Origin: Anaeroplasmataceae bacterium
GTDB lineage: Bacteria; Bacillota_I; Bacilli_A; Acholeplasmatales; Anaeroplasmataceae
Reading direction: 5' to 3'
Length of the DNA stretch: 64,000 nt
NCBI GenBank assembly: GCA_045127955.1
Contig: JBGVRA010000062.1
Location: forward strand, 1,428 to 65,427
In this document: in pieces, positions 22,782-51,915 of the stretch
Position numbering within the stretch: the stretch's first letter is position 1
How the letters are laid out: each line of letters opens with the position of its first letter
The notes under the pieces: generated by a model
The model's input: only the letters and a program-made list of their open reading frames with translations
Database searches by the model: none
Told to the model about the DNA's origin: nothing
Program-made: the position numbers and the translations under genes

Positions 22782-22818
22782 TTTTTGATATAATTTTAAT
22801 GTTTTGGAGGTTAGTTTT

Positions 22819-24651
22819 ATGGATATTAGAAATGTTGCTATTATAGCCCATGTTGACCATGGTAAAACTACATTAGTAGATAAATTATTAAGAAGTTCTC
22901 ACACGTTTAGAGATAATCAAGTTGTTCAAGATAGAGTTATGGATTCTAATGCTATTGAGCGTGAAAGAGGTATTACAATTTTAGCTAAGAATACTGCAAT
23001 TACATATAAGAATACTAAAATCAATATTTTAGATACTCCTGGTCATGCTGATTTTTCTGGTGAAGTTGAAAGAATTATGAAGATGGTTGATGGTGTTGTT
23101 TTAGTGGTTGATGCTTATGAAGGAACTATGCCTCAAACTAGATTTGTTTTAAAGAAAGCTTTTGAAGCTCACTTAAAACCTATTGTTGTTATTAATAAAG
23201 TTGATAAACCTTCAGCTAGACCTATGGAAGTTATTGATGAAGTTTTAGAATTGTTTATCGATTTAGGTTGTGATGAAGATGAACTTGATTTCCCTGTTTG
23301 TTTTGCATCAGCTGTAAATAATACATGTTCATTAGATAGTGATTTATCTACTCAAAAGAGTGGAATGGGGCCTTTACTTGATATGATTATTAATGAAATT
23401 CCTGCTCCTAAAATGGATAAGGATGCTTCATTACAACTTCAACCTGCATTGCTTGATTATACTGATTTTGTTGGTCGTATCGGTATTGGTAGAATTGCTA
23501 GAGGTACTATTAAATCTGGAGAAGTTGTTTCATGTTGTAGATTAGATGGATCTATTAAAACTTTTAGAGTTCAAAAATTGTATGGATTTTTAGGGTTAGA
23601 TAGAATTGAAGTTCATGAAGCATATGCTGGTGAGGTTGTGGCTGTTGCGGGACTTGGAGATATTTCAGTTGGTGAAACTATTTGTAATGTTGGTATGGAA
23701 GAACCATTAGAAAAAATCCATATTTCTGAACCTACTGTGCAAATGACTTTTGGTACTAATACATCTCCATTTGTTGGCAAAGATGGTAAAGCCGTTACTG
23801 CTACTAAATTAGAAGAAAGATTATTTAGAGAAGTTCAAAAGGATGTTTCACTTCGCGTTGAAAGAATTGATAAAGCAGAAGAATGGTTAGTATCTGGACG
23901 TGGTGAATTACATTTAAGTATTTTAATTGAAAATATGAGAAGAGAAGGTTATGAATTCCAAGTTTCTAGACCTAGAGTTATTATGAAAGAAATTGATGGG
24001 GTTGTTTGTGAACCTTATGAATATTGTGTTATTGATGTTCCTAGTGAATGTGCTGGTTCTGTTATTGAGATTATGGGTAATAGAAGAGGTACATTAGAAA
24101 CCATGAGTAATACCGAAACTCAATCAAGAATTGTTTATACTATTCCTTCACGTGGTCTTATTGGGTTTAATACCGATTTTATGACTGTTACTAAGGGGTA
24201 TGGTATTATTAATCATAGTTTCTTAGAGTATAAACCTATGGAAAGTATGAATATTGCTGAAAGAACAAGTGGTGTTTTAGTTTCTATGGCTCAAGGGCAA
24301 TCTACTGCATATTCTATTGGTGCATTAGAAGATAGAGGTGTTATGTTTATTTCACCTGGTGAAGAAATATATGAGGGTATGATTGTTGGGGAAGCTAATA
24401 AGGGGCTTGATTTAGCTGTAAATGTTGTTAGAGCTAAACAACAAACTAATACTAGATCTTCTAATAAAGATACTACTGTTGTTTTAAAGACTCCTAAGGT
24501 TTTAACTTTAGAAAATTGTTTGGAATTTATTAATGAAGATGAATTAGTTGAGATTACTCCTAAGCATGTACGTTTACGTAAGAAGATATTAGATACTGTT
24601 GAACGTAAAAAGTATGATGCAAAGGTTAGAAATTTAAAAGAAGAAAATTAG
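22819..24651 (+). CDS. typA: translational GTPase TypA/BipA
   Basis: 'IRNVAIIAHVDHGKTTLVD', 'DTPGHADF', 'NKVD'. GGAGG lies 8 nt upstream of ATG 22819. Confidence 0.95.
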   Translation: MDIRNVAIIAHVDHGKTTLVDKLLRSSHTFRDNQVVQDRVMDSNAIERERGITILAKNTAITYKNTKINILDTPGHADFSGEVERIMKMVDGVVLVVDAYEGTMPQTRFVLKKAFEAHLKPIVVINKVDKPSARPMEVIDEVLELFIDLGCDEDELDFPVCFASAVNNTCSLDSDLSTQKSGMGPLLDMIINEIPAPKMDKDASLQLQPALLDYTDFVGRIGIGRIARGTIKSGEVVSCCRLDGSIKTFRVQKLYGFLGLDRIEVHEAYAGEVVAVAGLGDISVGETICNVGMEEPLEKIHISEPTVQMTFGTNTSPFVGKDGKAVTATKLEERLFREVQKDVSLRVERIDKAEEWLVSGRGELHLSILIENMRREGYEFQVSRPRVIMKEIDGVVCEPYEYCVIDVPSECAGSVIEIMGNRRGTLETMSNTETQSRIVYTIPSRGLIGFNTDFMTVTKGYGIINHSFLEYKPMESMNIAERTSGVLVSMAQGQSTAYSIGALEDRGVMFISPGEEIYEGMIVGEANKGLDLAVNVVRAKQQTNTRSSNKDTTVVLKTPKVLTLENCLEFINEDELVEITPKHVRLRKKILDTVERKKYDAKVRNLKEEN

Positions 24652-31073: not shown

Positions 31074-34000
31074 ATGAAGAAGATTATTTATATATTATTA
31101 TTGATGTTGGTTTTGGTTCCTATTACATCATGTAAACCTAGTAAAAGGCCAACACCTACTGTAGAGACTTTAGAATATGTCGTTAGTTTTGAGTCTAATG
31201 GTGGTAGTAGCGTCTCTTCTGTTACTGTAGTTAGCGGAGAAAAAGTTAATAAACCAAGTGATCCTGTTTATGAAGGATTTGTTTTTGATGGTTGGTATAC
31301 TGATAGTGCTTTAACTTTAGAATATGATTTTAATGATGTTGTTGATAATAATCTTGTTTTATATGCTAAGTGGGTTGTTGTTGTCGATGAAAAGACTCAA
31401 GCTAAGGAAGAATTGATTGGTTTTGTTGAAGATATTAAAAGAGAATATGATGATGCTGAACTTATTAATCAAATAGATGAAATTAAGAATAGTGGTTTAA
31501 TTAAGATTGATAATGCTATAGATGTTAGTAGTTGTTTAAATGAAATTAAAGATGAAATTTTAGAGATTATTGAGTTATTTGGTAATGGTAAGGTAGAAGG
31601 ACAAATTGAATTTACTAATTATGAAGGTTTAAATGAGGCTGCAGTTATTGAATTTAATTTAAATGGTGCTAGTTCGTATAATGTTTATGTTAAAGGAAAT
31701 GATTATGAAGATTATACTTTATTAGATTATAAGAATGCTTATTATAGAAGTTTTACTGATGTTGGTCGTTTTGATTTAATTGGTTTTGAAAAAGGAGAAT
31801 ATTTCTTTAAGGTTGTTCCTGTTTTAAAAAATGAAGAATATGATTTACAGTCTGCTGTTTGTAAGGTTAGTATAGATGCTTATGATAGATCAGGATATGC
31901 TCATTATAATTATAGTGATGGTGTTGGCGCATATAATGATGATGGTACTCTAAAAGATAATGCGATTGTTATTTATGTAACTGATGAAAATAAGGATTAT
32001 GTTATGGGGAGTGTTGATGAGGTTTCATCAGTTATGTTTGATATTCCTGGTGTTGGAGGTAAGGCTTTAGGTATTGGATGGTGGCTTAATAACACTCAAT
32101 ATTCTAAGCAAGGATCTAATACTTATGATAGTAATGGTAGTAAACTTGGTTTTGATTCTTTAAATGATAGTCATCCTATTGTTATTCGTTTTGTTGGTAC
32201 TGTGACGGCACCTTTAGGGTTGACAGCTTATGATTCTACTGAATTTGGTGGTACTGTTGGTGATAATGGTAATATGGCTAGAATGAAGAATTTAAAGAAT
32301 GTTACTATTGAAGGTGTTGGTGATGATGCTGTTATTGAAGGCTGGGGATTCCACTTTATTTCTTCTGATACTACTGGTAATCGTGGTAAGAGTTTTGAGG
32401 CTCGCAATTTAACATTTAGTAAATATAGTGAAGATGCGTTAGGTATGGAAGGTGTCCAAGAAGGTGGTAAGTTAACTTCTCCTGTTCTAAGATGTTGGGT
32501 TCATCATATTACTTTCTTACCTGGATATTGTGCTAATCCTGCTGAATCTGATAAGAGTGAAGGCGATGGTTCTTGTGATTTTAAGCGTGGTATGTATTAT
32601 ACTATGGCGTATTGTTATTATGAATATTGCCATAAAACTAATTTGATTGGTTCTAGTGATGATTCACTTCAATTTAATATTAGTTTCCATCATAATATTT
32701 GGTATAATTGTGGTTCTCGTATTCCGTTATTAAGACAAGCTAATGTTCATTTTTATAATAATTATGTTTATGCTGATATTAATGATAGTAAAGCTGAGTT
32801 AAGTTATGTAGCTTCTTTAAGAGCAAATTGTTATATGTTTGCTGAAAATAATTATTTTGAAGGTTGTAAAAATGTCTATCAACAAAAGAGTGGTGTTGGT
32901 AAAGAATTTGGTAATACATATGTTCAATGTTATGGCGATTTTGATGTTGTTAAGGCAACTTCTAGAGATGAAAGTGTAAGTAGTTCTTGTGGATATAATG
33001 GAACAAGTTATGCTAATTTTGATACTAATAGTAGTTTATTTTATTATGATAGTGTTAATAAGAAAAGTGCTTGTTATATCACTGATAGTGTTACTGCAAG
33101 ACTTGAATGTTTAAAGGAATCTGGTTCTTATTATCGAACTAAACTTAATAAAACATCTTGTAGTATTGATCGTGTTTCTAATTTATATGATGTTGATGAG
33201 ACTATTAGTTTAACTGATGAAGTTTTAAATGTAAGTATTGGAACAAATATTTCAGGTATTCATTTTAGTAATAGTGGTAAGAATAAATTTAAGAATCAAG
33301 GTGTTACTTTTAGACTTGCTGACGTTGCGAAGGTTAGTATTAATATTGTTGGTAATTCTAGTGCAGCTTTAAATGATGGTTATTTGATTAGTTCAAATGG
33401 TGAAGTAATGCTTGTTGGTAGTGGAAGTGTTGTTTTAAATCCTGGTGTTTATTATATTGCTTCTTGTCAAATGGATAAAGAATCTACGTTAAATTCTTTA
33501 TCTTTTGAAAGGGTTAATTCAGAAGAATTTAATGAACAAAGAATTAAAGAATATAATGAATTAGTTTCTAAGATTGGCCAAATTAGTTATTCTTTAGATT
33601 GTTATAATCGTATTAAAGATTGTATGGATTATTATAAGGGATTAGGAGATTTACAAGCTAGTGTTGATTATAGTGTTGTTGATAATGCTTATAGTAGTTA
33701 TTTAGAACTTGGTGTTACTTATGTTAGTTCTTTAATTGATAATATTGGTGTTGTTGATAAGACGAGTGGTAGTAGTATTTATTTAGCAAGAACTGAATAT
33801 GATAAGTTAGTTAGTAAAGATGGTAGTGTTGTTGTTCCTAATTATGATGTTTTAGTTCAAGCTGAGGCTAGTTTTGAAGGTTTTGCGGTTAGTTCTTGTA
33901 TTGATAAGATTAATGATATCGGTGTTGTTGATTTAAATAGTGGTAATAAGATTATGACTGCTAGAGGTGAATATGATTTACTTAGTGTAAGTCAAAAAGA

Positions 34001-34793
34001 GCTTATTACTAATTATAATGTTTTAGTTCAAGCTGAGATTGAGTTTAATGATTTGGTTTTAATTAATGAAGTTGATGTGTTAATTAAGAATGTTAATTTA
34101 GATAATATTGATTCAATAGAAGAAGTTATTAATGGTTATAATGAGTTAAGTGATAGTAATAAAAATAGAATAGCTGATAAAGATAAATATTCTAATATTT
34201 TAGTTACTTATGTTATTAAACTAATTGATAATATTGGTGTTGTTACTAATAAATCTGGTGATGATATTAATAAAGCGTTAGCTGCATATAATAATTTAAG
34301 TGATTTGGAAAAAGAACTTATCACTAATTATGATGTTTTAGTTAGAGCTTTAGAAGATTTTAGTAATATGGTTATTGAATATAATATTAGCTGGTCTTAT
34401 AGTAGTGAAGCTGTAGCTGAAAAACCTAAGACTGGTACTACTAAAGATGGATTTGAATATAATATGAATAAGATTAGTGGTAATAGTATTTGTATTAAAC
34501 AAGGGTCTGGTCAATATGTTAAGAGTCCTGTTTTAGAATCTAGTAATGTTAGTATTACTTTTACAGTAAAAGCTATTGATACTAGCAATATTATTACTTT
34601 AGATGTTTTAGTTGTTTATACTGATGGTAGTAGTGAAGTTATTTATGTTGAGTTACCTGAAGATAAGAAGGCGTTAACTAAGACTATTGAATTTTCTGGT
34701 AAGGAAATTAGTACTGTTACTTTGAATGGTTCATCAAGCCATACATCTAAAAATGTTGGTGTTGAGGAGTTTAGTATTACTTATTTTAAATAA
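31074..34793 (+). CDS. surface lipoprotein with a Listeria/Bacteroides-type repeat, a PL1 pectate-lyase domain and C-terminal helical repeats
   Basis: Lipobox 'ITSC'. 'YVVSFESNGGS...FDGWYTD'. PL1 signature 'WVHHITF...DGSCDFKRG...HKTNLIGSSD...SFHHNIWYNCGSRIPLLRQANVHFYNNY'. Confidence 0.85.
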   Translation: MKKIIYILLLMLVLVPITSCKPSKRPTPTVETLEYVVSFESNGGSSVSSVTVVSGEKVNKPSDPVYEGFVFDGWYTDSALTLEYDFNDVVDNNLVLYAKWVVVVDEKTQAKEELIGFVEDIKREYDDAELINQIDEIKNSGLIKIDNAIDVSSCLNEIKDEILEIIELFGNGKVEGQIEFTNYEGLNEAAVIEFNLNGASSYNVYVKGNDYEDYTLLDYKNAYYRSFTDVGRFDLIGFEKGEYFFKVVPVLKNEEYDLQSAVCKVSIDAYDRSGYAHYNYSDGVGAYNDDGTLKDNAIVIYVTDENKDYVMGSVDEVSSVMFDIPGVGGKALGIGWWLNNTQYSKQGSNTYDSNGSKLGFDSLNDSHPIVIRFVGTVTAPLGLTAYDSTEFGGTVGDNGNMARMKNLKNVTIEGVGDDAVIEGWGFHFISSDTTGNRGKSFEARNLTFSKYSEDALGMEGVQEGGKLTSPVLRCWVHHITFLPGYCANPAESDKSEGDGSCDFKRGMYYTMAYCYYEYCHKTNLIGSSDDSLQFNISFHHNIWYNCGSRIPLLRQANVHFYNNYVYADINDSKAELSYVASLRANCYMFAENNYFEGCKNVYQQKSGVGKEFGNTYVQCYGDFDVVKATSRDESVSSSCGYNGTSYANFDTNSSLFYYDSVNKKSACYITDSVTARLECLKESGSYYRTKLNKTSCSIDRVSNLYDVDETISLTDEVLNVSIGTNISGIHFSNSGKNKFKNQGVTFRLADVAKVSINIVGNSSAALNDGYLISSNGEVMLVGSGSVVLNPGVYYIASCQMDKESTLNSLSFERVNSEEFNEQRIKEYNELVSKIGQISYSLDCYNRIKDCMDYYKGLGDLQASVDYSVVDNAYSSYLELGVTYVSSLIDNIGVVDKTSGSSIYLARTEYDKLVSKDGSVVVPNYDVLVQAEASFEGFAVSSCIDKINDIGVVDLNSGNKIMTARGEYDLLSVSQKELITNYNVLVQAEIEFNDLVLINEVDVLIKNVNLDNIDSIEEVINGYNELSDSNKNRIADKDKYSNILVTYVIKLIDNIGVVTNKSGDDINKALAAYNNLSDLEKELITNYDVLVRALEDFSNMVIEYNISWSYSSEAVAEKPKTGTTKDGFEYNMNKISGNSICIKQGSGQYVKSPVLESSNVSITFTVKAIDTSNIITLDVLVVYTDGSSEVIYVELPEDKKALTKTIEFSGKEISTVTLNGSSSHTSKNVGVEEFSITYFK

Positions 34794-42060: not shown

Positions 42061-42792
42061 ATGAATTATACGCATAAGTACGCTATGCAATTAAATGAAG
42101 AAATTGTCTCTCATGAAGATACATATAATATTATTTTAGATAGCCAAAAGCTATATGTGCTTAGATTTGATGGAGTTAAAATGACAAAGAACTTTTTAGG
42201 AAATCCAGATTCAAGAACTCCATTTTTTAAAACAATGAAAGAAACACTTCAATGTTTTATGGAAAATAATTTAAATTTAAAATTTGCATATTCTTTTAGT
42301 GATGAAATTTCTATTTTTTTAACTAAAGAATCATTAGAAGAATATAAGTATCGATTAGAAAAAATTATTTCTATTTATTCAAGCCAAATGGGGTTCATTT
42401 TTGCTGCTATTGCTACCAAAAATAAATTAAATCTTGATGGGAAAATTAGAGCATTTGATTGTAGAATTATCGAGTTCGATAATATGTATGAAATTAGGGA
42501 ATATTTTGTTTCAAGACAAGTATTCCAAATTTCGAGTCATTTTCTAAGATTGAAATATTTATATTTACCTAAGCTAAAAGCAACCAATACTGATATTATT
42601 AAGGTTAATTTAAAGAGTCATGGAATAGATTATGATAAATTAAGTAAATCAGAAAAATACGGTTTTTTATATGTTGAAGATTGTTTTCAACAAATATATG
42701 AGTTTTTAGAAAATAGAGATAAGTTAATGCATCAATTAGAGCTTAATCCTCAATTTGTCTATATGAAAAAACTAGAAAAGAGAAGAAAATAA
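42061..42792 (+). CDS. Thg1-like protein (tRNA-His guanylyltransferase family, 3'-5' nucleotidyltransferase)
   Basis: 'YVLRFDGVKMTKNF' and 'FAYSFSDEISIFL' carry the Thg1 palm-domain carboxylates (D ... DE). Confidence 0.65.
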   Translation: MNYTHKYAMQLNEEIVSHEDTYNIILDSQKLYVLRFDGVKMTKNFLGNPDSRTPFFKTMKETLQCFMENNLNLKFAYSFSDEISIFLTKESLEEYKYRLEKIISIYSSQMGFIFAAIATKNKLNLDGKIRAFDCRIIEFDNMYEIREYFVSRQVFQISSHFLRLKYLYLPKLKATNTDIIKVNLKSHGIDYDKLSKSEKYGFLYVEDCFQQIYEFLENRDKLMHQLELNPQFVYMKKLEKRRK

Positions 42793-43622: not shown

Positions 43623-43754
43623 TGCTAAAAAATCAAATAGTTTTTTTAACAAAAAAATAGAATATAATAAAAGTATAGTCAAGATATTTGAGGTTATTAT
43701 TACAACCTCAAGTACATTGACTTTTTTTTATAGCCAAGAATATGAGAGGAAATC

Positions 43755-44141
43755 ATGAAAAAACAAGAAATAAGACATTATCTACAAATATTAAGAAAGA
43801 ATAAATACTTAGAAAAAAATAGTAAAGGTATATATAAAGTAAATATATATAAAAGAAAAAAAGAAATAGAGATCCCCAAATGGGTATTTATGGTTTTTAA
43901 CTATTTAAAAGAAGTCATTAAAAATAGTAAGGATTTATTAATTAAAGGAATTATTAAAATGTATTATTTTGATAATTTAAAGGATTTAGAGATTATATCT
44001 AAGTTACCAATAAGTGAAACATTATACTACAAATATAAAAGAAGTATTGAAGATAATATATATCATGTACTTATTTATGAAGGATTTGTAACAAAAAAAG
44101 AAATAGAAATGGAGGTGAAAATAGATGGATATGATAATTGA
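43755..44141 (+). CDS. small basic protein with a sigma-region-4/ArpU-RinA-like C-terminal HTH (putative locus regulator)
   Basis: GAGAGGA RBS. '...IKMYYFDNLKDLEIISKLPISETLYYKYKRSIEDNIY...'. The family assignment is inferred by eye. Confidence 0.45.
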   Translation: MKKQEIRHYLQILRKNKYLEKNSKGIYKVNIYKRKKEIEIPKWVFMVFNYLKEVIKNSKDLLIKGIIKMYYFDNLKDLEIISKLPISETLYYKYKRSIEDNIYHVLIYEGFVTKKEIEMEVKIDGYDN

Positions 44142-44523
44142 TTTAGTTAATAAATATGGATTAAATACTGTAATATTAGCATTAATAATAAATATATTAA
44201 CTCAAGTATTAAAACTACCAATTACGAAAATAACTGATGATAAAAATATAACAAGATTTATAGTGTTTATGCCTATAATAATAGGATTTATAGTTACATA
44301 TTTATTTAAACTTATTATTTATAAAGAAGTAGTATTTAATCAAGAGTTTATGAATTTATATATTAGATCAACAAGCTTAAGCCTATCATTTTATGCGATA
44401 TTTGAAAAAATATTTCCTAAAAAGAAAATAGAAGATGGAACTATAGAAGCAAGCCAAGAAGTAATAAACATGCTAAATAAAGTAATTGAAGAAGAAAAGA
44501 TAGTATTAAAGGGGAAAAGGTAA
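44125..44523 (+). CDS. holin-like small membrane protein
   Basis: GGAGGTG 7 nt upstream. Two or three hydrophobic helices followed by a highly charged C-tail. It ends 2 nt before the RHS start. Confidence 0.5.
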   Translation: MDMIIDLVNKYGLNTVILALIINILTQVLKLPITKITDDKNITRFIVFMPIIIGFIVTYLFKLIIYKEVVFNQEFMNLYIRSTSLSLSFYAIFEKIFPKKKIEDGTIEASQEVINMLNKVIEEEKIVLKGKR

Positions 44524-44525
44524 GT

Positions 44526-47500
44526 ATGGGAATAATAAAATTAAATAAGAAAAAAGAAGAACAAATAGTATATGAAAAAGAAAATCTTCCTGTTAAAAAA
44601 GAAAAGAAGAAATATGATAATAAGAAGGTAGTATGTGAAGTAGAAGAAAAGAAAAATGAATATGTAAGTACATATTTATTAAATGATGGGACATATGAAC
44701 AAATAATAACAAGTGAAGCATCAAATTATTATGATGAAGAAGAAAAGAAATATAAGAGTATAGATAATGAATTATTCTTAGATGGTGATGTATATAAAAA
44801 TAAAGAAGGAAAATATAGATTTGAGATATTAAAACCTGAAAAGGGTAATAATGTAAAAATTAGTAAAAAGGATATAAGTATATCTTGGGAATATTTAGGG
44901 AAGAAGAACTCTAGAAATGAATTAGTATTAAATCAGAAGTTAGATATTAAAAATAATAATAAGAAAAATAGTAAAGTTAGATATGAAAATATAGAAGTTG
45001 ATTCAGATATTGAATATGTCTTAAGTGGAAATAATATCAAAGAAAATATAATAGTAAAAGAAAAAAGTAGCCAATATGAATATTCTTTTATGCTAGATAT
45101 AAAAGATATGGTATTAAAATTATCTAGTGATAAGACAAAAATAGAAATATATAAGGGTGAAGAAAAAGAATTTGAAATCCCAGCCCCATATATGTATGAC
45201 AGCACAGGAGAAGTAAGTGATGAAGTATATTATGAAGTAGAACCAACAAGTGATGGAAAATATGTATTTAGTGTAATTGCCGAAGCTAGTTGGATTAATG
45301 ATAACAAAAGAGTCTTACCAGTTACAATTGATCCACAAATTGAAGTAGAAAGTAATAAGATAATAAGCTGGAAAACAGAAAAAAGAGTAGTAAATATAGT
45401 AGGTGGCAAAGAAGAATATGGAGTATGGGAAGAAGTAACACAACCAATGTTAAGAGTATATAAGGGAGGAGGTTTAGAATATAGGAGTATAATAACAATT
45501 AATAAAGCCTTAATTAATGGATATGTAGGAGAATTTTGTAATGCAAGATTAAATATAAAAGCAGATAGAGTATACATAGGAAGTATGTTAGTAAATGGAA
45601 AAAATGTAGATGTTAAAACAATTAATTTATCTATTGATGTAATATCAGATGATTATGAAAAAGCAATAGATAAATTAGATATTATCTTAACAAGTAATTG
45701 TAGTGAAAATATATATTTTGATGTTAATAATAATCCGCCTACCTTTACAATTAATTACATAGAAAATGAACATATAAATCATGTTAAAAAGACATTTAAT
45801 TTAGCTAATATAGCTACATCAGAACTTGATTTAGTAACAGGAGATTTAGTAACTAGTATACCTACAGTATTATCAGATTTAACTTTAGGTGTTCCTATTT
45901 ATCATGTTTATAAAAAGGGAGTAGATGATTATAATTTAGGATGTAATTTCAAATTAAATTTACATGAAAAATTAATTAAAAACGAAGGATTATATTATAC
46001 ATATATTGATTCAAATGGTTATAAGCATATAGTAAGAGAATTTAATTACTATAATGATATAAATGATAATAAGGTATATATAAGTGACAAAGAAAATATA
46101 GAAGTAAGTATAGATGGAAGTTTAAAATATAATTCAAATGGAATATATTATAATGTATATAGAGAATATAAATCAATAACAGGATTAGAATTAATAACTA
46201 AGTTAAGTGATTATAAAAATATAGAATTTGTTGAACAAAGAACAGAAGAGATTAAGACTTTAGAAGAACAAATAAAAGCATATGAAAAAGTATTGAAAGA
46301 ATATAGTATTTACAAAATAAAACAACGTAACAATGAATATGTTATAGATGAAAATTGGTATTCAACTATTGTGAATTTAGAAGCATATTTAAATAGTGCA
46401 GATAAAATAAAAGAATTTTTAGAAGTGTTAAGTGTTTCATATGATTATTATTTACTAAGTAAAAATGAATTTGAAACATATTATTCATTAGAGGTTCAAA
46501 ATGAAGGTTTATGGCTACAAGATGAGTTATTGACTATAGAATATAATAATAATTCAAATGTAGTAGAAAAAGAATATAGTCTAGCAAAGAAAAATAATAA
46601 TTCTGGTCAACTGTTAATAGTTATTAATCAACAACAAAAGATATTAAATCAAAGTCTAGAAAATGTTCAAATAATTAAAGATTACTATAAAGAATATAGT
46701 TTATTAAAAGACAAATTAAATCAATTATATTTAACAACCCCAGAAAATTATTTAACAAATGGAAAAATATTAAAAGGATTTAACAGGGATGGAGATTTAA
46801 TAGTAATATATGATATGTATGAAAATTATGTAGTAATAGAATATGAAAGCTATTTACTTAATGATAATACATATCAAAAAAGAATAGGTAGAGTATATGA
46901 TAATTATAATAGATGTGTAATATTAAATTATTCTAATGATTCACACATGTTATTATCAATAACTGACACAAAAGGAAGAAAAACAAGCTTTGGATATATT
47001 GATGGTTATTTAAATAATATTACCTATGATACAGGCGAATATATTGTATTATCATATTATGATGATAATATTACGTCAGTAATAGAAGATAAAAGATGTT
47101 TTAAGACTACAATATCATATATTTATGGTAGACCAGTAAGTTTTAAAAACGAATCATACATCAAAACCATTAGTAAAAATGTTTTAACTAAAGAATTTAT
47201 GGAAATATCTAAAATGTCATTATCATATTCCCCAATTGATATGTATCCAGTTAAGGGTGTCACAATAACAAATAATTTGAATAAAGAAACATATATTTTT
47301 GATAATACAGGATTTAATACAGAATATAGATTATATGAAAATAATAAAGTAGTTAAAGCTTTAAGATATGAATATATACCATATTGGAAAGGTGGAGTAG
47401 CTCAAAATAATCCTAGATCTGTAGTTACATCTACAACTAAGGATTCATTATATAAGTCTTCATTTATATTTACTACAGGAGATGTAGTAACAACAACATT

Positions 47501-50225
47501 AAATGAAGATAATAAAGCTAGTGTTGTATCAACATCAAATATAGCTATATCAGACTCATTTAAAGAACAAATAACAATTTATTATACATATGATAATAAA
47601 AAATTAACTAAAGAGGTTACAGTAATTAATTATTTGGATAATACTGATACTATTTTTAAAACAATAACACATATAAAAAATTATTATTATAATTTAGCTT
47701 TTGATATAATTAAAACAGTAAGTTATGTTGAAGGTGAAGAATTAATAAATGGTAAAATGGTTGAAGAAGTAGTTTATGATAATAAAGGAAATATTATTCA
47801 ATCATTTAGTTATAATACATTAGATCCAACTAATAAATTCTATAAAGAAAGTGAATATAATGAATTAGGACAAGTAATTAAAGAATTAGACCAATTAGGT
47901 ATTCATAAGAAATTATATGAATATTTTAATAATACGAATATTATTAAAAATATGGTATTACCAAACGGAAGTATAATATCATATGGATGTGATATTGACG
48001 ATACTATTACATCCATCACAGCATCAACAACAGAAGGTGAAGAAAACTGTAATAACCAAGTATTAAGATGTGGTGAAGTAGTTGAGGTAAATAGTGGAAA
48101 TAACAACATTAAGTATAAGCTAGATCATAAGCGAAGAATTATCAGTGTAGATGTTAATGGTGTAGTTGATTATGTGGTTAATACATATGAAGAAACAACA
48201 TCAAATGGAGTTATTACAGAAACTAAGGTGACATCTTCATATAAAGATGGAACAACAGTTATTAAAAGATATGATGGATTAGGGAAACTAATAGATTCAA
48301 CAGAACATGGAAATTTACATTTATCTTTTGATGAAAAAGGAAGAGTAACAAATATAAGTGATGCAAGTTTATATCAATCAACAACATTAACATATGATGA
48401 ATTTGATAATATTGAAGTTTATGAATTAAAAGATATGAATGGTCTTCCTATAATCCAGGAAACTAATACATATGATGGATATGGCAATTTATCCACAAGT
48501 ACATATAGAGGCTATGTAAATCATGTCTATAGTATGATGTATAGTGAAGATTCAGTAAAAAGATTAAGAAGAATTGGATTTAGTAAAAGCTATAATAATT
48601 ATTCTTTTGAAGCATTAGTAGATAAATTAGGAAGAAATATAGGAAAAAGAATATATGATGATTTAGATGTTGTTTTAGAAGAAAAAATATCATATTTAAA
48701 ACAAGGAGATCATACAACTAACATTGTCCAATCTATTACATTTGTTAGAACAAATGATAATATAAGATATGCCTTTGATAATATGGGAAATATTACAAAG
48801 GTATATGAAAATAAAGAACTAGCAGTAAGATATTTATATGATAATCTAAATAGATTAATAAGAGAAGATAATAAGGTATTAAATAAAACAATACTAATAG
48901 CATATGATTCAAATGGAAATATAATAAATAAAAGAAAAACAGGATTTACATTAAAAGATAATATATTAGTAGAAGAATTAGAAACAAGTGATGTAGCTTA
49001 TATTTATAATGGAGATAAATTATTATCATATGGTAATCAATCTATTACATACGATGTATTAGGAAGACCTACAAGCTTTATGGGTAAAACTATAACATGG
49101 GTAAAGGTAAATCAAATCACTAAAATAGATAATTTAGAATTTAAGTATGATAGTTTAGGAAGAAGAGTTAAAAAAGGAAATATTGATTTTATCTATGATA
49201 GTAACAATAGACTAATCAAACAAGGTGATTTAGAATTTATTTATGATCATACAGGATTAGCAGGAATAATAAATGGAATCACCGGATATTTCTATAGAAA
49301 AAATGCCCAAGGTGATATTATAGCATTAGTTGACAGAAGTGGAAATGTTGTAGTAAAATATGTATATGATGCATGGGGTAATCATAAGATATTTGATAAT
49401 GATGGTAATGAAATTACTTCATCAACACATATTGGTGTTATTAATCCATTTAGATATAGAGGATATTATTATGATGAGGAAACTCAGCTTTATTGGGTAT
49501 CCTCACGTTACTATTCGCCTGAATTATGCAGATGGATTTCACCGGATTCAATCGAATATTTAGATCCTGAAAGTATCAATGGATTAAACTTATACTGCTA
49601 CTGCATGAATAATCCGATTATGTACTACGATCCTAGTGGACATTCGCCAGAATGGTGGCAATGGGCATTATTTGGAGTCGGAGCTGCTTTGGTTGTAGTA
49701 GCTGCTGGAATGGCTATTCTAGGAACTGGTGGTATCGCAGCTTTTGGTTTAGGAGCTTTAATAGGTTCTTTAGGTTTAGGAGCAGGAGGAGCTGTAGTCG
49801 GTGGAGCCATTGGTTATGCCGTTGATGGTGTTGATGGTATATTAGGTGGAGCGTTAGCGGGATTTGGCATTGGAGCTATCGTAGGATTTGTAGTTGGTGG
49901 AACAATAGGTTATTATAATTCGCTTGTCAAGGTAGATATAAGAAAATTTACAGAATATGTATTAGAACCATCAAATAGTAAAGGAAAAGATGTCATATTT
50001 AAAAATTTAGGTTATGATAAAACAAACGCAAAATCATTAGTGCGACTATATAAAAGACAAGGTGTAAAAAACCTAGTTTTTAAAAGTTACAAACTTGGTA
50101 AGTTGGATATACACGGTCAAAGAATCAACATGGCAATAAGAATTGGAAATAAAGTCTTGAATAGTGCGTGGATACAGGTAGGAAAAGGTATCAGATTAGT
50201 TTCACCATTTGTTGGATTTTTATAG
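44526..50225 (+). CDS. RHS/YD-repeat polymorphic toxin (1,899 aa)
   Basis: Dozens of YD repeats (e.g. 'YDGLGKLIDS', 'YDVLGRPTSF', 'YDSLGRRVKK'). RHS-associated core 'VKYVYDAWGN...FRYRGYYYDEETQLYWVSSRYYSPELCRWISPDS...NNPIMYYDPSGH'. Variable C-terminal tip. No signal peptide. Confidence 0.95.
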   Translation: MGIIKLNKKKEEQIVYEKENLPVKKEKKKYDNKKVVCEVEEKKNEYVSTYLLNDGTYEQIITSEASNYYDEEEKKYKSIDNELFLDGDVYKNKEGKYRFEILKPEKGNNVKISKKDISISWEYLGKKNSRNELVLNQKLDIKNNNKKNSKVRYENIEVDSDIEYVLSGNNIKENIIVKEKSSQYEYSFMLDIKDMVLKLSSDKTKIEIYKGEEKEFEIPAPYMYDSTGEVSDEVYYEVEPTSDGKYVFSVIAEASWINDNKRVLPVTIDPQIEVESNKIISWKTEKRVVNIVGGKEEYGVWEEVTQPMLRVYKGGGLEYRSIITINKALINGYVGEFCNARLNIKADRVYIGSMLVNGKNVDVKTINLSIDVISDDYEKAIDKLDIILTSNCSENIYFDVNNNPPTFTINYIENEHINHVKKTFNLANIATSELDLVTGDLVTSIPTVLSDLTLGVPIYHVYKKGVDDYNLGCNFKLNLHEKLIKNEGLYYTYIDSNGYKHIVREFNYYNDINDNKVYISDKENIEVSIDGSLKYNSNGIYYNVYREYKSITGLELITKLSDYKNIEFVEQRTEEIKTLEEQIKAYEKVLKEYSIYKIKQRNNEYVIDENWYSTIVNLEAYLNSADKIKEFLEVLSVSYDYYLLSKNEFETYYSLEVQNEGLWLQDELLTIEYNNNSNVVEKEYSLAKKNNNSGQLLIVINQQQKILNQSLENVQIIKDYYKEYSLLKDKLNQLYLTTPENYLTNGKILKGFNRDGDLIVIYDMYENYVVIEYESYLLNDNTYQKRIGRVYDNYNRCVILNYSNDSHMLLSITDTKGRKTSFGYIDGYLNNITYDTGEYIVLSYYDDNITSVIEDKRCFKTTISYIYGRPVSFKNESYIKTISKNVLTKEFMEISKMSLSYSPIDMYPVKGVTITNNLNKETYIFDNTGFNTEYRLYENNKVVKALRYEYIPYWKGGVAQNNPRSVVTSTTKDSLYKSSFIFTTGDVVTTTLNEDNKASVVSTSNIAISDSFKEQITIYYTYDNKKLTKEVTVINYLDNTDTIFKTITHIKNYYYNLAFDIIKTVSYVEGEELINGKMVEEVVYDNKGNIIQSFSYNTLDPTNKFYKESEYNELGQVIKELDQLGIHKKLYEYFNNTNIIKNMVLPNGSIISYGCDIDDTITSITASTTEGEENCNNQVLRCGEVVEVNSGNNNIKYKLDHKRRIISVDVNGVVDYVVNTYEETTSNGVITETKVTSSYKDGTTVIKRYDGLGKLIDSTEHGNLHLSFDEKGRVTNISDASLYQSTTLTYDEFDNIEVYELKDMNGLPIIQETNTYDGYGNLSTSTYRGYVNHVYSMMYSEDSVKRLRRIGFSKSYNNYSFEALVDKLGRNIGKRIYDDLDVVLEEKISYLKQGDHTTNIVQSITFVRTNDNIRYAFDNMGNITKVYENKELAVRYLYDNLNRLIREDNKVLNKTILIAYDSNGNIINKRKTGFTLKDNILVEELETSDVAYIYNGDKLLSYGNQSITYDVLGRPTSFMGKTITWVKVNQITKIDNLEFKYDSLGRRVKKGNIDFIYDSNNRLIKQGDLEFIYDHTGLAGIINGITGYFYRKNAQGDIIALVDRSGNVVVKYVYDAWGNHKIFDNDGNEITSSTHIGVINPFRYRGYYYDEETQLYWVSSRYYSPELCRWISPDSIEYLDPESINGLNLYCYCMNNPIMYYDPSGHSPEWWQWALFGVGAALVVVAAGMAILGTGGIAAFGLGALIGSLGLGAGGAVVGGAIGYAVDGVDGILGGALAGFGIGAIVGFVVGGTIGYYNSLVKVDIRKFTEYVLEPSNSKGKDVIFKNLGYDKTNAKSLVRLYKRQGVKNLVFKSYKLGKLDIHGQRINMAIRIGNKVLNSAWIQVGKGIRLVSPFVGFL
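49479..49568 (+). repeat. 90-bp RHS-core homology block, copy 1 (in the main gene)
   Basis: 84/90 identical to 50632-50721. The first 39 nt are identical. Confidence 0.9.
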
Positions 50226-50240
50226 GAGTGATAGTGTTAT

Positions 50241-50438
50241 ATGGGAAAAATAGAATTATATCAAACAGTAAAACTTATAACTAATGAGTATGAGGATAGT
50301 GGGTTAAAAAAAGGATCAATAGGGACAATTTTAGAAATCTATGATGAAAAAACCTTTGAAATTGAATGGTACGATTTATTAGGTAATGTAATTTATATGT
50401 GTGCTTTTAATATTAATGATTTTGAAGTTATTAGTTAA
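50241..50438 (+). CDS. DUF4926-like small protein, candidate cognate immunity protein
   Basis: 65 aa: 'LYQTVKLITNEYEDSGLKKGSIGTILEIYDEKTFEIEWYDLLGN' (SH3-like). AGGAGTG RBS. Starts 15 nt after the RHS stop. Confidence 0.6.
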   Translation: MGKIELYQTVKLITNEYEDSGLKKGSIGTILEIYDEKTFEIEWYDLLGNVIYMCAFNINDFEVIS

Positions 50439-50589: not shown

Positions 50590-51378
50590 TTAAGATATGG
50601 TTATTATGAGGATACTCGTAATAGCCCTGTCGAAACTCAGCTTTATTGGGTATCCTCACGTTACTATTCGTCTGAATTATGTCGTTGGATTTCACCAGAT
50701 TCAATCGAATATCTAGATCCTCAAAATATTAATGGTTTAAACTTATATGCGTACTGTGGCAATGATCCAATTAACAAATACGATCCTACAGGACACTTTG
50801 GAATCGGATTAACATTACTAATTGCTACTGGCGTTGGTTTAGCTTTTGGTTTTGGTATAGAAGTTGTAAAACAAGCATCTGATGGTGGTAAATTTTGGGA
50901 TTTAAGCACATGGAACTGGAATTTAAGTACGTGGAATTGGTGGGAAATTGGTAAGGCGTCGCTGATAGGAGCAGCAACAGGTTTTGCATATGGTTTAGGC
51001 GGTGTGGCCGGAGGCATTGTAAAAGGATCATTCAAGGCACTAACTATTGCCGGCAAAGCTTTAACGGTTTCACAATCTGTTGGATTGCTATTAGGAACCG
51101 CAGCAGCCACTAATTTCGTTGCTGGAGTTGCTGGATATGCGATGCATACTGCTGGTTCTGAAACTGAAAGTTTTAATATTTTAAAAGGGATTTCAGAAGG
51201 AATTGGTCAAACTGGTAAAGGAGTATTATCATTCTTTACTGCTGGAATGTATGTTGGTTCTGGAGTATGGAAAGTTGGAGTTGGTGCAAAAAATACTTTT
51301 TCATCAATTTTAGGAAGAGCCGCCAGTAAATTTATAGTTAATTACGTACCAAACTATATGTTTGAAAATTTATTCTAA
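50590..51378 (+). CDS. orphan RHS C-terminal cassette (core end plus alternative glycine-rich membrane toxin tip), no start codon
   Basis: The frame is open from 50590. 'YGYYEDTRNSPVETQLYWVSSRYYSSELCRWISPDSIEYLDPQNINGLNLYAYCGNDPINKYDPTGH', then about 193 aa of Gly-rich hydrophobic sequence. The track shows only its 3' part (51004-51378). Confidence 0.8.
   Translation, partial: LRYGYYEDTRNSPVETQLYWVSSRYYSSELCRWISPDSIEYLDPQNINGLNLYAYCGNDPINKYDPTGHFGIGLTLLIATGVGLAFGFGIEVVKQASDGGKFWDLSTWNWNLSTWNWWEIGKASLIGAATGFAYGLGGVAGGIVKGSFKALTIAGKALTVSQSVGLLLGTAAATNFVAGVAGYAMHTAGSETESFNILKGISEGIGQTGKGVLSFFTAGMYVGSGVWKVGVGAKNTFSSILGRAASKFIVNYVPNYMFENLF
50632..50721 (+). repeat. 90-bp RHS-core homology block, copy 2 (in the orphan cassette)
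   Basis: 84/90 identical to 49479-49568. Confidence 0.9.
50902..50943 (+). repeat. 21-nt tandem duplication inside the orphan toxin (LSTWNWN / LSTWNWW)
   Basis: 'ttaagcacatggaactggaat' and 'ttaagtacgtggaattggtgg' are adjacent and in frame. Confidence 0.85.
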
Positions 51379-51393
51379 TAAAGGAGAATCTTG

Positions 51394-51855
51394 ATGGTTA
51401 AAATTAAATTGAAATTATTTGAATCTATAGTCGGTGCTATATTATTGCCAAATATAGGATTGTTTTTTACAACGTTATTATTAATCATCTCATTAATAGT
51501 TAAACAAGAACCGATTGTATATAAAGGAATTCTAATTTCATATATAGTTTGCTTATCTTTGATGATTTTTACTTTAGTTAGCTGTTTTTTAGTAAATAAA
51601 AAAAGCATAAAAGAATTTGTTTTAAAAGATAGTGAAATTGAATTTCTTAATCATACTTATCTAACAGATCAAGTAAGTTCTTGTGAATATTATGTATGTA
51701 AATGGTATGCATTGCCGATAGCACTAATCTATAAACAACAAGCGGCGGGATTAATTACCTTTAAATTCAATTCTGGTGAAAAAATTCAATTTAAAATATT
51801 CTATAAAGATTATCTAAAATTAAAAAATAAATTTAAAAATATTATTGTAAAATAG
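51394..51855 (+). CDS. membrane protein (2 TM plus C-terminal beta-rich domain), candidate immunity protein for the orphan toxin
   Basis: AGGAG 7 nt upstream of ATG 51394. Starts 16 nt after the orphan cassette stop. Confidence 0.6.
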   Translation: MVKIKLKLFESIVGAILLPNIGLFFTTLLLIISLIVKQEPIVYKGILISYIVCLSLMIFTLVSCFLVNKKSIKEFVLKDSEIEFLNHTYLTDQVSSCEYYVCKWYALPIALIYKQQAAGLITFKFNSGEKIQFKIFYKDYLKLKNKFKNIIVK

Positions 51856-51879: not shown

Positions 51880-51915
51880 GGGTAAGTTTACTCTATGGGT
51901 AGGCTTACCTTTTAT
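51880..51915 (+). terminator. rho-independent terminator
   Basis: GGGTAAG ... CTTACC followed by TTTTATTT. Confidence 0.55.

Follow-up and report, generated by a model that had tools for sequence, protein, structure and literature searches.

A membrane protein gene linked to RHS polymorphic toxins without signal peptides in gut Clostridia and Mollicutes: a minimal operon from an Anaeroplasmataceae bacterium

Sec-independent export of large toxins aided by a small membrane protein is a known principle. The described loci with the closest functional likeness to the one reported here are the pathogenicity locus (PaLoc; TcdR-TcdE-TcdA/B), TcsL/TcsE of P. sordellii, TpeL/TpeE of C. perfringens and UviA/UviB of BCN5. 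Clostridia, the hosts of these toxin loci, lack Tat, and Sec-independent, possibly non-lytic release has been proposed for the toxins (PMC9527704, PMC8878733); for folded, Sec-incompatible toxins the route proposed there is holin-type transport (PMC9527704). Tc toxins, in which TcB/TcC form an RHS cage, are released by the holin/endolysin/spanin type X secretion system (T10SS) of Yersinia entomophaga (PMC10847048). Other RHS/YD toxins of Gram-positive bacteria, such as WapA (B. subtilis, S. suis) and teneurin-like proteins, depend on Sec (PMC12704120, PMC13018210), while Eag/DUF1795 adaptors serve prePAAR Rhs effectors in type VI secretion systems (T6SS) and Rhs proteins of Listeria are associated with the type VIIb system (T7SSb) (PMC7773334, PMC10327511). 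Here we analyse a 64 kb stretch of DNA from an Anaeroplasmataceae bacterium (the window, to which every statement about this genome refers). It contains a gene for a large RHS toxin without a signal peptide, preceded by genes for a putative activator and a small membrane protein and followed by an immunity gene. With three genes, the locus is the smallest version of a conserved RHS polymorphic-toxin operon of gut Clostridia and Mollicutes. From its conserved linkage we propose that the membrane protein is very probably a dedicated trafficking partner of the toxin.

The four genes (g1 to g4) are co-directional; they and the other features of the locus given below lie on the forward (+) strand, at window positions. 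g1 (43755 to 44141) encodes a basic helix-turn-helix (HTH) protein of 128 aa from the family DUF1492/LtrB (Ltr late activators), g2 (44125 to 44523) a small membrane protein of 132 aa whose family is uncharacterised, g3 (44526 to 50225) the 1899-aa RHS polymorphic toxin and g4 (50241 to 50438) a 65-aa DUF4926 immunity protein (Pfam, 42.3 bits against a cut-off of 29.1). The open reading frame (ORF) positions bear out the tight packing described in an earlier note on this DNA, which had been made from the letters alone: g1 and g2 overlap by 17 nt, 2 nt separate g2 from g3 and 15 nt separate g3 from g4. A good Shine-Dalgarno sequence stands before each gene. The GC content is 0.22–0.24 across 44–48 kb and 0.25–0.30 in the flanks.

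Related loci (numbered with L) were taken from the neighbourhoods of exact homologues, from GTDB species representatives (19 loci) and from a metagenome scan (18 loci). Their genes were mapped with our own hidden Markov models, and the scan for related loci used a 12-sequence alignment of g2; the patterns used on the genome collections reach only g2 relatives that retain the TRFIVF or SLSLxFYA motif. In about 25 of 26 decidable loci, those with enough flanking sequence, g2 and an RHS gene with the N-terminal domain of g3 lie in one operon, with g2 identities of 34–100%. The earlier note had made its proposal depend on the arrangement being conserved among homologues, and it is, down to 34% identity in g2. 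The loci are spread over low-GC, Mollicute-like contigs as well as Christensenellaceae, Ca. Scatosoma, Pumilibacter muris and Lachnospiraceae. The exception (L050:121-579), at the edge of a contig, has a g2-like gene without the C-terminal KIxLKG motif, followed by PcrA, LigA, UvrA and HprK and by no RHS gene. We also note the locus L015:110-2552, where an RHS protein starting MGTIKLKK is preceded by an F11-like gene (F11 is defined below), a weakly g1-like 125-aa protein, a 229-aa protein with a single transmembrane (TM) segment and a 209-aa protein. There is no g2 in the upstream sequence available, and these genes may constitute a different set of partners.

The operon occurs in two forms. 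The short form (g1-g2-RHS or g2-RHS) is that of the window, L003, L007, L033 and L053, all Mollicute-like with a GC content of 0.22–0.27, and is also seen in L014, L034, L036, L037 and L051; in L014, L036, L037 and L051, g2 adjoins the RHS gene in the absence of g1. The long form has 12 genes, in the order g1, F6, g2, F5, F7, F8, ACP, F9, ACP, F10, F11 and RHS (ACP, acyl-carrier protein), so that eight enzyme or unknown genes lie between g2 and RHS. F6 (417 aa), in which beta-helix-like repeats can be seen by eye, separates g1 from g2; F5 is a dTMP-kinase-like protein, F7 an NTP_transf_5 protein, F8 a 275-aa protein, F9 an acyl-AMP ligase, F10 a BtrH-like acyltransferase and F11 a 185-aa protein. 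F6, F8 and F11 gave nothing in relaxed Pfam scans, and F6 also matched no PDB sequence. The long form is found in L020-L027, L030, L031, L035, L038-L040, L043 and L046 (e.g. L026:8280-20385). Its hosts are walled Clostridia, among them Christensenellaceae, Ca. Scatosoma and the cultured Pumilibacter muris, and the majority of species have it. L012 (g2-F5-RHS) is intermediate, and in L038 the RHS gene lies upstream of g1. None of F4-F11 is present within the 64-kb window. From position 43627 the cassette is about 81% identical in nucleotide sequence to L003 (from 9504). The genes upstream of the two copies differ (endonuclease IV in the window, a DHH-family gene in L003), which implies insertion or mobility of the cassette, placed in at least two chromosomal contexts.

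Judged from its domain matches, g3 is an intact RHS polymorphic toxin. It matches RHS_repeat (E = 1.8e-12) and Rhs_assc_core (74.7 bits), and the C-terminal part of the core matches Rhs and Tc (TcC) proteins of the PDB. The YD-repeat shell and RHS core occupy aa 740–1706 (46743 to 49643) and end in the motif PIMYYDPSGH (aa 1697–1706, 49614 to 49643), which is of the PxxxxDPxG[LH] type. A long helical, coiled-coil-like region precedes the shell (aa 574–737, 46245 to 46736; secondary structure of the AlphaFold2 (AF2) model). The usual marks of an RHS polymorphic toxin are all present at the locus: a YD shell with its core motif, a variable C-terminus, an immunity gene and an orphan cassette.

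Within the first 70 residues of g3 the Kyte-Doolittle mean over 12 residues reaches a maximum of −0.04, so the protein has no signal-peptide core. The same maximum is below 1.0 in all 33 RHS ORFs of the clade that were scored. Sequence and fold searches of g3 found no PAAR, LXG/WXG or two-partner secretion (TPS) domain, in agreement with the earlier note, which had described the toxin as leaderless and free of Sec signal, LXG/WXG head and PAAR. A trafficking domain of the PAAR, LXG or TPS kind was accordingly rejected for the N-terminus, which is disordered and then all-beta. A match there to a known secretion or trafficking domain would have spoken against the earlier proposal; carbohydrate-binding module (CBM)-like domains were found in its place. 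Residues 1–34 (44526 to 44627) consist of the motif MGIIKLNK and a Lys/Glu-rich disordered linker, a candidate targeting signal; the AF2 predicted local distance difference test score (pLDDT) is below 50 for residues 1–27. A motif M-[GSA]-x-[IL]-K-[LIMF]-[KN] with a charged linker is common to nearly all RHS homologues of the clade. Residues 35–415 (44628 to 45770) form two beta-sandwich domains of CBM-like fold (pLDDT about 85–90), for which the Foldseek matches included the CBM 8wab (probability 1.0) and the GH98 enzyme 9h6h (E 5e-5); carbohydrate-binding and CAZyme accessory modules ranked best, and no trafficking domain was among them. The first beta-sandwich domain also occurs in Sec-secreted ‘DNRLRE domain’ proteins of Clostridia, and all seven paralogues with complete N-termini carry a Sec signal peptide directly before it. 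The domain therefore functions extracellularly. By this comparison the RHS clade has exchanged the signal peptide for MGxIKxK and a disordered linker while being linked to g2.

The earlier note had assigned a holin topology to g2 (two hydrophobic helices, a weaker third and a charged tail), and both hydropathy and the AF2 model agree with it. Hydrophobic segments lie at about 11–34 and 41–71. The model, of moderate confidence (mean pLDDT 75.8), has hydrophobic helices H1 (13–36) and H2 (40–66), a weakly hydrophobic H3 (73–96) and a charged tail helix (104–122); the tail of 36 aa holds 8 K/R and 7 D/E. These are the structural features of a holin, by which a small integral membrane protein has one or more TM helices and a C-terminal tail that is charged and hydrophilic, and the topology matches that described for polytopic toxin-export holins (PMC9527704). 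Membership of a holin family was not found for g2, nor was a link to phages or, in the scanned window ORFs and the conserved operon, to an endolysin. Profile searches, proposed in the earlier note for both small genes, matched g2 to no non-holin family and to no holin family either: the window protein gave sub-threshold noise only against Pfam, PHROGs, NCBIfam and PADLOC, and 85 diverse relatives run against Pfam and PHROGs gave no family, only scattered single matches, the best PHROG holin having E = 0.26. In the Pfam and PHROGs scans g2 belongs to neither the TcdE (TCDB 1.E.19) nor the BhlA/TpeE (1.E.27) holin family. Foldseek found no match with E < 2 for the model in the PDB, tblastn with a g2 relative as query found no match in 50,697 phage records and the g2 profile found none in IMG/VR. 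Since there is no holin family, fold or phage match, the term ‘holin-like’ refers here to the topology of g2. In an exhaustive profile search the family comprised 254 representatives (clustered at 50% identity), and 130 of these had E <= 1e-10; a word-indexed search had returned 16 clusters only.

The g2 family has three conserved motifs, TRFIVFxPIxxGF (helix 2), SLSLxFYAxxEK (helix 3) and, at the C-terminus, K-I-[IV]-L-[KR]-G. The last (44503 to 44520) and the RHS N-terminal G-[IT]-I-K-[LIM]-K (44526 to 44549) are similar basic/aliphatic strands. They deviate together in L036, L037 and L051 (TIILTN with GTLKFN), and this parallel deviation may reflect direct recognition. g2 goes with the constant N-terminal portion of the RHS protein rather than with its variable toxin/immunity end, a pattern typically shown by the trafficking partners of polymorphic toxins.

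g1 has an isoelectric point of 9.46, and its C-terminal part matches Pfam DUF1492 (23.5 bits against a cut-off of 21.5), as do 9 of the 13 members of its family. Weak matches to ArpU (NCBIfam) and to phrog_248 ‘transcriptional activator’ were also obtained; a search of the g1 profile against PDB sequences gave a weak HTH match only. The DNA-binding family thus assigned upholds the earlier description of g1 as a basic protein with an HTH of the sigma-70 region-4 or ArpU-RinA type. Sigma70_r2 (region 2) is absent from g1, and Sigma70_ECF appears marginally (E = 0.088) in 1 of 13 relatives. On these matches g1 is not a sigma factor of the TcdR/UviA type. DUF1492 is the LtrB member of the Ltr superfamily (RinA, ArpU, LtrA/Sigma70_r4, LtrB, LtrC), phage proteins that bind direct repeats and thereby switch on the late operons for packaging and lysis (PMC3753634). 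This membership makes g1 a credible activator, and we regard it as the probable activator of the operon. In L034 (Lachnospiraceae, 165-596) a 143-aa Sigma70_r4 protein (28 bits, LtrA type) occupies the g1 slot before g2-RHS; such non-orthologous replacement supports a regulatory role for the slot. The likeness to the Ltr superfamily has its limits. g1 shares the family above the cut-off, whereas Ltr proteins are phage-borne and the g1 locus does not lie in a prophage; they activate packaging and lysis operons, whereas the presumed target of g1 is a toxin operon, with DNA binding and operator both putative.

The leader of the cassette (43627 to 43754) contains a -10-like box, a long hairpin, a run of eight U, a partial arm repeat and then the ribosome-binding site of g1. 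The conserved box GAATATAAT lies at 43660–43668. The hairpin (43677–43722) is followed directly by the U8 run (43723–43730), and part of its 5′ arm is repeated at 43733–43740. The minimum free energy of the leader fold is −25.6 kcal/mol (z = −5.5), with z ranging from −5.5 to −7.6 across the window, L003 and L033. The same architecture is present in L003 (9504-9630) and L033 (2300-2435), the sequence of the latter being unrelated. The hairpin was scored as terminator-like. It could not be dismissed as a mere nfo terminator (43685–43714), since it accompanies the cassette in L003. Rfam gave no match on the locus or the leader. A promoter consensus scan is to be read against the base composition: 86 sites were observed and 89 are expected in this AT-rich DNA. 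Possible roles of the leader are those of attenuator, insulator and Ltr operator.

Behind the core motif of g3 comes an 88-aa Gly-rich (31% Gly), hydrophobic ‘glycine-zipper’ region (aa 1713–1800, 49662 to 49925). By analogy with glycine-zipper T6SS effectors (PMC10240207), it is probably the membrane-translocation segment of the released toxin. The C-terminal toxin domain (99 aa, aa 1801–1899, 49926 to 50222) resembles Pfam DUF6883 (E = 0.0018; 19 bits, under the 27-bit cut-off). In a 2026 preprint DUF6883 is reported to be the BECR-Tox3 RNase family, with DUF4926 as its conserved downstream partner (bioRxiv 10.64898/2026.08.28.747851). The g3 C-terminus is probably an RNase of this type, an assignment supported by the cognate DUF4926 gene directly downstream, which matches the described DUF6883-DUF4926 pairing. 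Beyond g4 lies an orphan RHS cassette (50590 to 51378). It is 5′-truncated and consists of a core remnant, ETQLYWVSSRYYSSELCRWISPD...YDPTGH, and a different Gly-rich C-terminal domain. The next gene (51391 to 51855) encodes a 154-aa hydrophobic membrane protein, which by its position is the probable immunity protein for the orphan C-terminal domain; a terminator follows at 51880–51910. The proteins of the orphan cassette gave no Pfam match, relaxed scans included.

To the observed gene content, families, synteny and contrast in signals we add three functions that we infer, namely activation by g1, export by g2 and the use of the RHS N-terminal motif as a tag. The reading that we favour, tentatively, is that g1 activates the operon, g2 moves the signal-less RHS protein out of the cell, probably in a holin-like manner and with recognition of the N-terminal tag, and g4 protects the producer. 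Acting as an Ltr-type HTH activator, g1 would switch the operon on from behind the structured leader. g3 would be made in the cytoplasm without a Sec signal, and its glycan-binding-type N-domain and payload would have to act outside. That payload, the Gly-zipper and the probable RNase, would be antibacterial and neutralised in the producer by g4. g2, with its two to three helices and a charged tail on the cytoplasmic side, would carry the RHS protein across or out of the single membrane by a Sec-independent route, the likeliest mode being a holin-like local permeabilisation of the membrane, lytic or non-lytic; such a mechanism is plausible. The motif M-G-x-I-K-x-K would probably be the recognition tag. 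A wall-less Anaeroplasmataceae host would need no endolysin. A wider formulation, which we consider possible and rather doubtful, is that g2 and the MGxIKxK tag belong to an unrecognised, dedicated RHS biogenesis and secretion system, to which walled species add the acyl pathway of the F genes and of which the window form is the stripped-down core. In that system the beta-helix, P-loop kinase-like, nucleotidyltransferase, ACP/acyl-AMP-ligase and BtrH-like proteins of walled species would modify the toxin or the envelope (e.g. by acylation), and this would let the RHS toxin pass or be anchored.

Several observations weigh against export by g2 in a holin-like manner. The protein has no homology to holins or solved folds and no phage or viral relatives, its charge bias gives no orientation, and a topology like its own is common among small membrane proteins. 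The conservation of its motifs exceeds what is expected of a holin and points to specific contacts with proteins instead of plain hole formation. In two RHS relatives (L015, L019) the short stretch available upstream contains no g2. The enzyme set around g2 in the long form (kinase-like, NTP_transf_5, two ACPs, acyl-AMP ligase, BtrH-like), whose acyl-transfer part is not known from any holin-toxin locus, hints at a more elaborate biogenesis, in which the role of g2 could differ; the acyl pathway might modify the toxin or the envelope. Finally, T7SS genes were sought in the scanned window ORFs and the loci, the genome sequence here being limited to 64 kb.

Four other explanations were considered. 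g2 might be a docking, anchoring or assembly factor or, like the small membrane partners of D-alanylation, a membrane component of the acyl pathway, with the RHS protein leaving by some other route. g2 would then keep the RHS protein at the surface or modify it there, and exit would take place by lysis of a subpopulation or through an unknown machine. This would suit the two ACPs, the acyl-AMP ligase and the BtrH-like acyltransferase lying between g2 and RHS, the want of any resemblance to holins, and the conserved g2 motifs, including the KIxLKG strand that resembles the RHS GIIKLK and deviates with it. We think it unlikely: the short form retains g2 with no acyl-pathway gene anywhere in the 64 kb, alternative export machinery is not visible near any locus, and the RHS protein must cross the membrane before it can be anchored. 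The idea that g1 and g2 form a regulatory pair without a role in export, an activator and a membrane anti-activator or sensor in the style of sigma and anti-sigma, is weakened because g2 stays with the RHS gene where no g1 is in reach (L014, L036, L037, L051) and because the 417-aa F6 gene parts g1 from g2 in the long form. In addition, Pfam scans of g2 and its relatives revealed no recognisable anti-sigma or sensor domain. The 17-nt overlap with co-transcription, the likeness of g1 to sigma region 4 together with its replacement by a Sigma70_r4 protein in L034, the upstream 229-aa single-TM, anti-sigma-like protein of L015 and the tight control suggested by the structured leader would all fit such a pair, which on balance we regard as improbable.

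The RHS protein could also be exported by a machine encoded elsewhere, such as a T7SSb, with g2 as an accessory that shields, for example, the producer membrane from the Gly-zipper. Rhs proteins can be T7SSb-associated in Bacillota (PMC10327511), and the 64-kb limit of the genome sequence leans the same way. The N-terminus of g3, disordered and then all-beta, is not of the helical LXG/WXG type, however; there is no EssC-like gene in the scanned window ORFs or in the conserved part of any locus, and g2 co-varies with the constant N-terminal part rather than with the variable C-terminal domain. We hold this route to be very improbable. Least probable of all, to the point of being far-fetched, is an intracellular conflict or abortive-infection module, with an RHS protein that is not secreted and a membrane-disrupting g2 effector triggered alongside it. 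A phage-type activator, a holin-like membrane protein and the missing signal peptide are what such a module might contain; the immunity gene, the orphan cassette and the glycan-binding N-domain with its Sec-secreted paralogues are hallmarks of an inter-bacterial toxin. PADLOC finds nothing, and an anti-phage defence system was rejected on this ground.

The host and the remainder of the window provide the setting for the proposed export by g2. BipA of the window (22804–24651) shares about 90% identity with proteins that bear the label Anaeroplasmataceae and 87–88% with those of Anaeroplasma sp. and Ca. Avacholeplasma; by these identities the host is an Anaeroplasmataceae-type Mollicute. We take the Anaeroplasmataceae to be a wall-less Mollicute lineage, and the host is probably wall-less. 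About 25 window ORFs outside the RHS locus, the largest included, were scanned with Pfam and proved to be housekeeping, surface or transport genes or gave no match. T6SS, T7SS, TPS and lysin genes were not found among them. The earlier statement that the 64 kb contain no T6SS, T7SS, two-partner secretion or endolysin gene therefore stands for the ORFs scanned, which cover part of the window. No hydrolase or spanin was found in these ORFs or in the conserved operon. Two ORFs of 1.2 kaa (thousand amino acids) were considered as rpoB/rpoC and rejected, their identities being a surface protein and PFOR. A 1239-aa protein encoded at 31074–34793 combines a Listeria-Bacteroides repeat (Flg_new) with a pectate-lyase domain; it is a large protein, secreted or at the surface, of an organism that is putatively wall-less. 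At 42061–42792, two genes upstream of the cassette and directly before the endonuclease IV gene, there is a gene of the Thg1 family (tRNA-His guanylyltransferase-like; Pfam, L001 listing).

A literature search on holins, YD-repeats and Rhs in Christensenellaceae, Mollicutes and Bacillota found no description of this operon, and no report of RHS polymorphic toxins in Mollicutes was found in the literature searched. To our knowledge, the exit of large signal-less toxins from Gram-positive or wall-less bacteria has been outlined only for TcdE-type holins (glucosylating toxins) and T7SS substrates. The locus described here would be a compact, conserved system for one class of cargo, in which a 132-aa membrane protein is combined with a tag and a regulator. 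Gut commensals, Christensenellaceae among them, carry it widely, and it extends polymorphic-toxin warfare to the Mollicutes. In the long form an acyl-carrier/acyltransferase pathway is also tied to an RHS toxin. The question of export is directly testable, as the cultured Pumilibacter muris carries the long form.

The release of an RHS toxin by a holin-like route had been put forward in the earlier note as undescribed. By the literature searched this stands for the operon itself; it does not stand for the principle, since Tc toxins leave by the T10SS. The Yersinia system resembles our locus in its signal-less RHS-cage toxin and holin-dependent exit. It is Gram-negative, however, employs a full phage lysis cassette and lyses a specialised subpopulation, whereas the window locus shows no endolysin or spanin, a single-polypeptide toxin, an unrelated membrane protein and wall-less or Gram-positive hosts. 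The combination of holin and peptidoglycan hydrolase that marks a T10SS is thus lacking in the scanned window ORFs and the conserved operon. WapA-type toxins have in common with g3 the YD shell, the polymorphic C-terminal toxin with its immunity protein and a surface- or glycan-binding N-terminal region. They carry a Sec signal peptide, whereas the clade of g3 has MGxIKxK, a disordered linker and g2. In being a small conserved gene directly upstream that co-varies with the N-terminal trafficking region of the effector, g2 is reminiscent of Eag-type adaptors. Those are soluble and feed a large separate machine, whereas g2 is an integral membrane protein with no machine in sight and an RHS partner without PAAR, prePAAR or LXG. 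Nor does g3 look like an LXG/WXG substrate of a T7SSb, its disordered and then beta-rich N-terminus giving no LXG/WXG match.

The comparison that the earlier note had favoured, with a module of the TcdR/TcdE or UviA/UviB style, fails on homology and on architecture because the families of regulator and holin are unmatched and the long form adds further genes. The regulator of the clostridial loci is a group-5 sigma factor, whereas g1 is a 128-aa LtrB/DUF1492 HTH protein without region 2. Their cargo is a glucosylating toxin or a bacteriocin, whereas g3 would be an antibacterial RHS polymorphic toxin with an immunity protein, and neither PaLoc nor BCN5 has a counterpart to the nine extra operon genes of most g2 relatives. 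The likeness is one of function. Like the locus in the window, the large clostridial toxin and BCN5 loci unite a transcription factor, a small membrane protein and a huge signal-less toxin, and a large signal-less toxin directly adjoins the membrane protein in the short form of the operon, with eight genes intervening in the long form.

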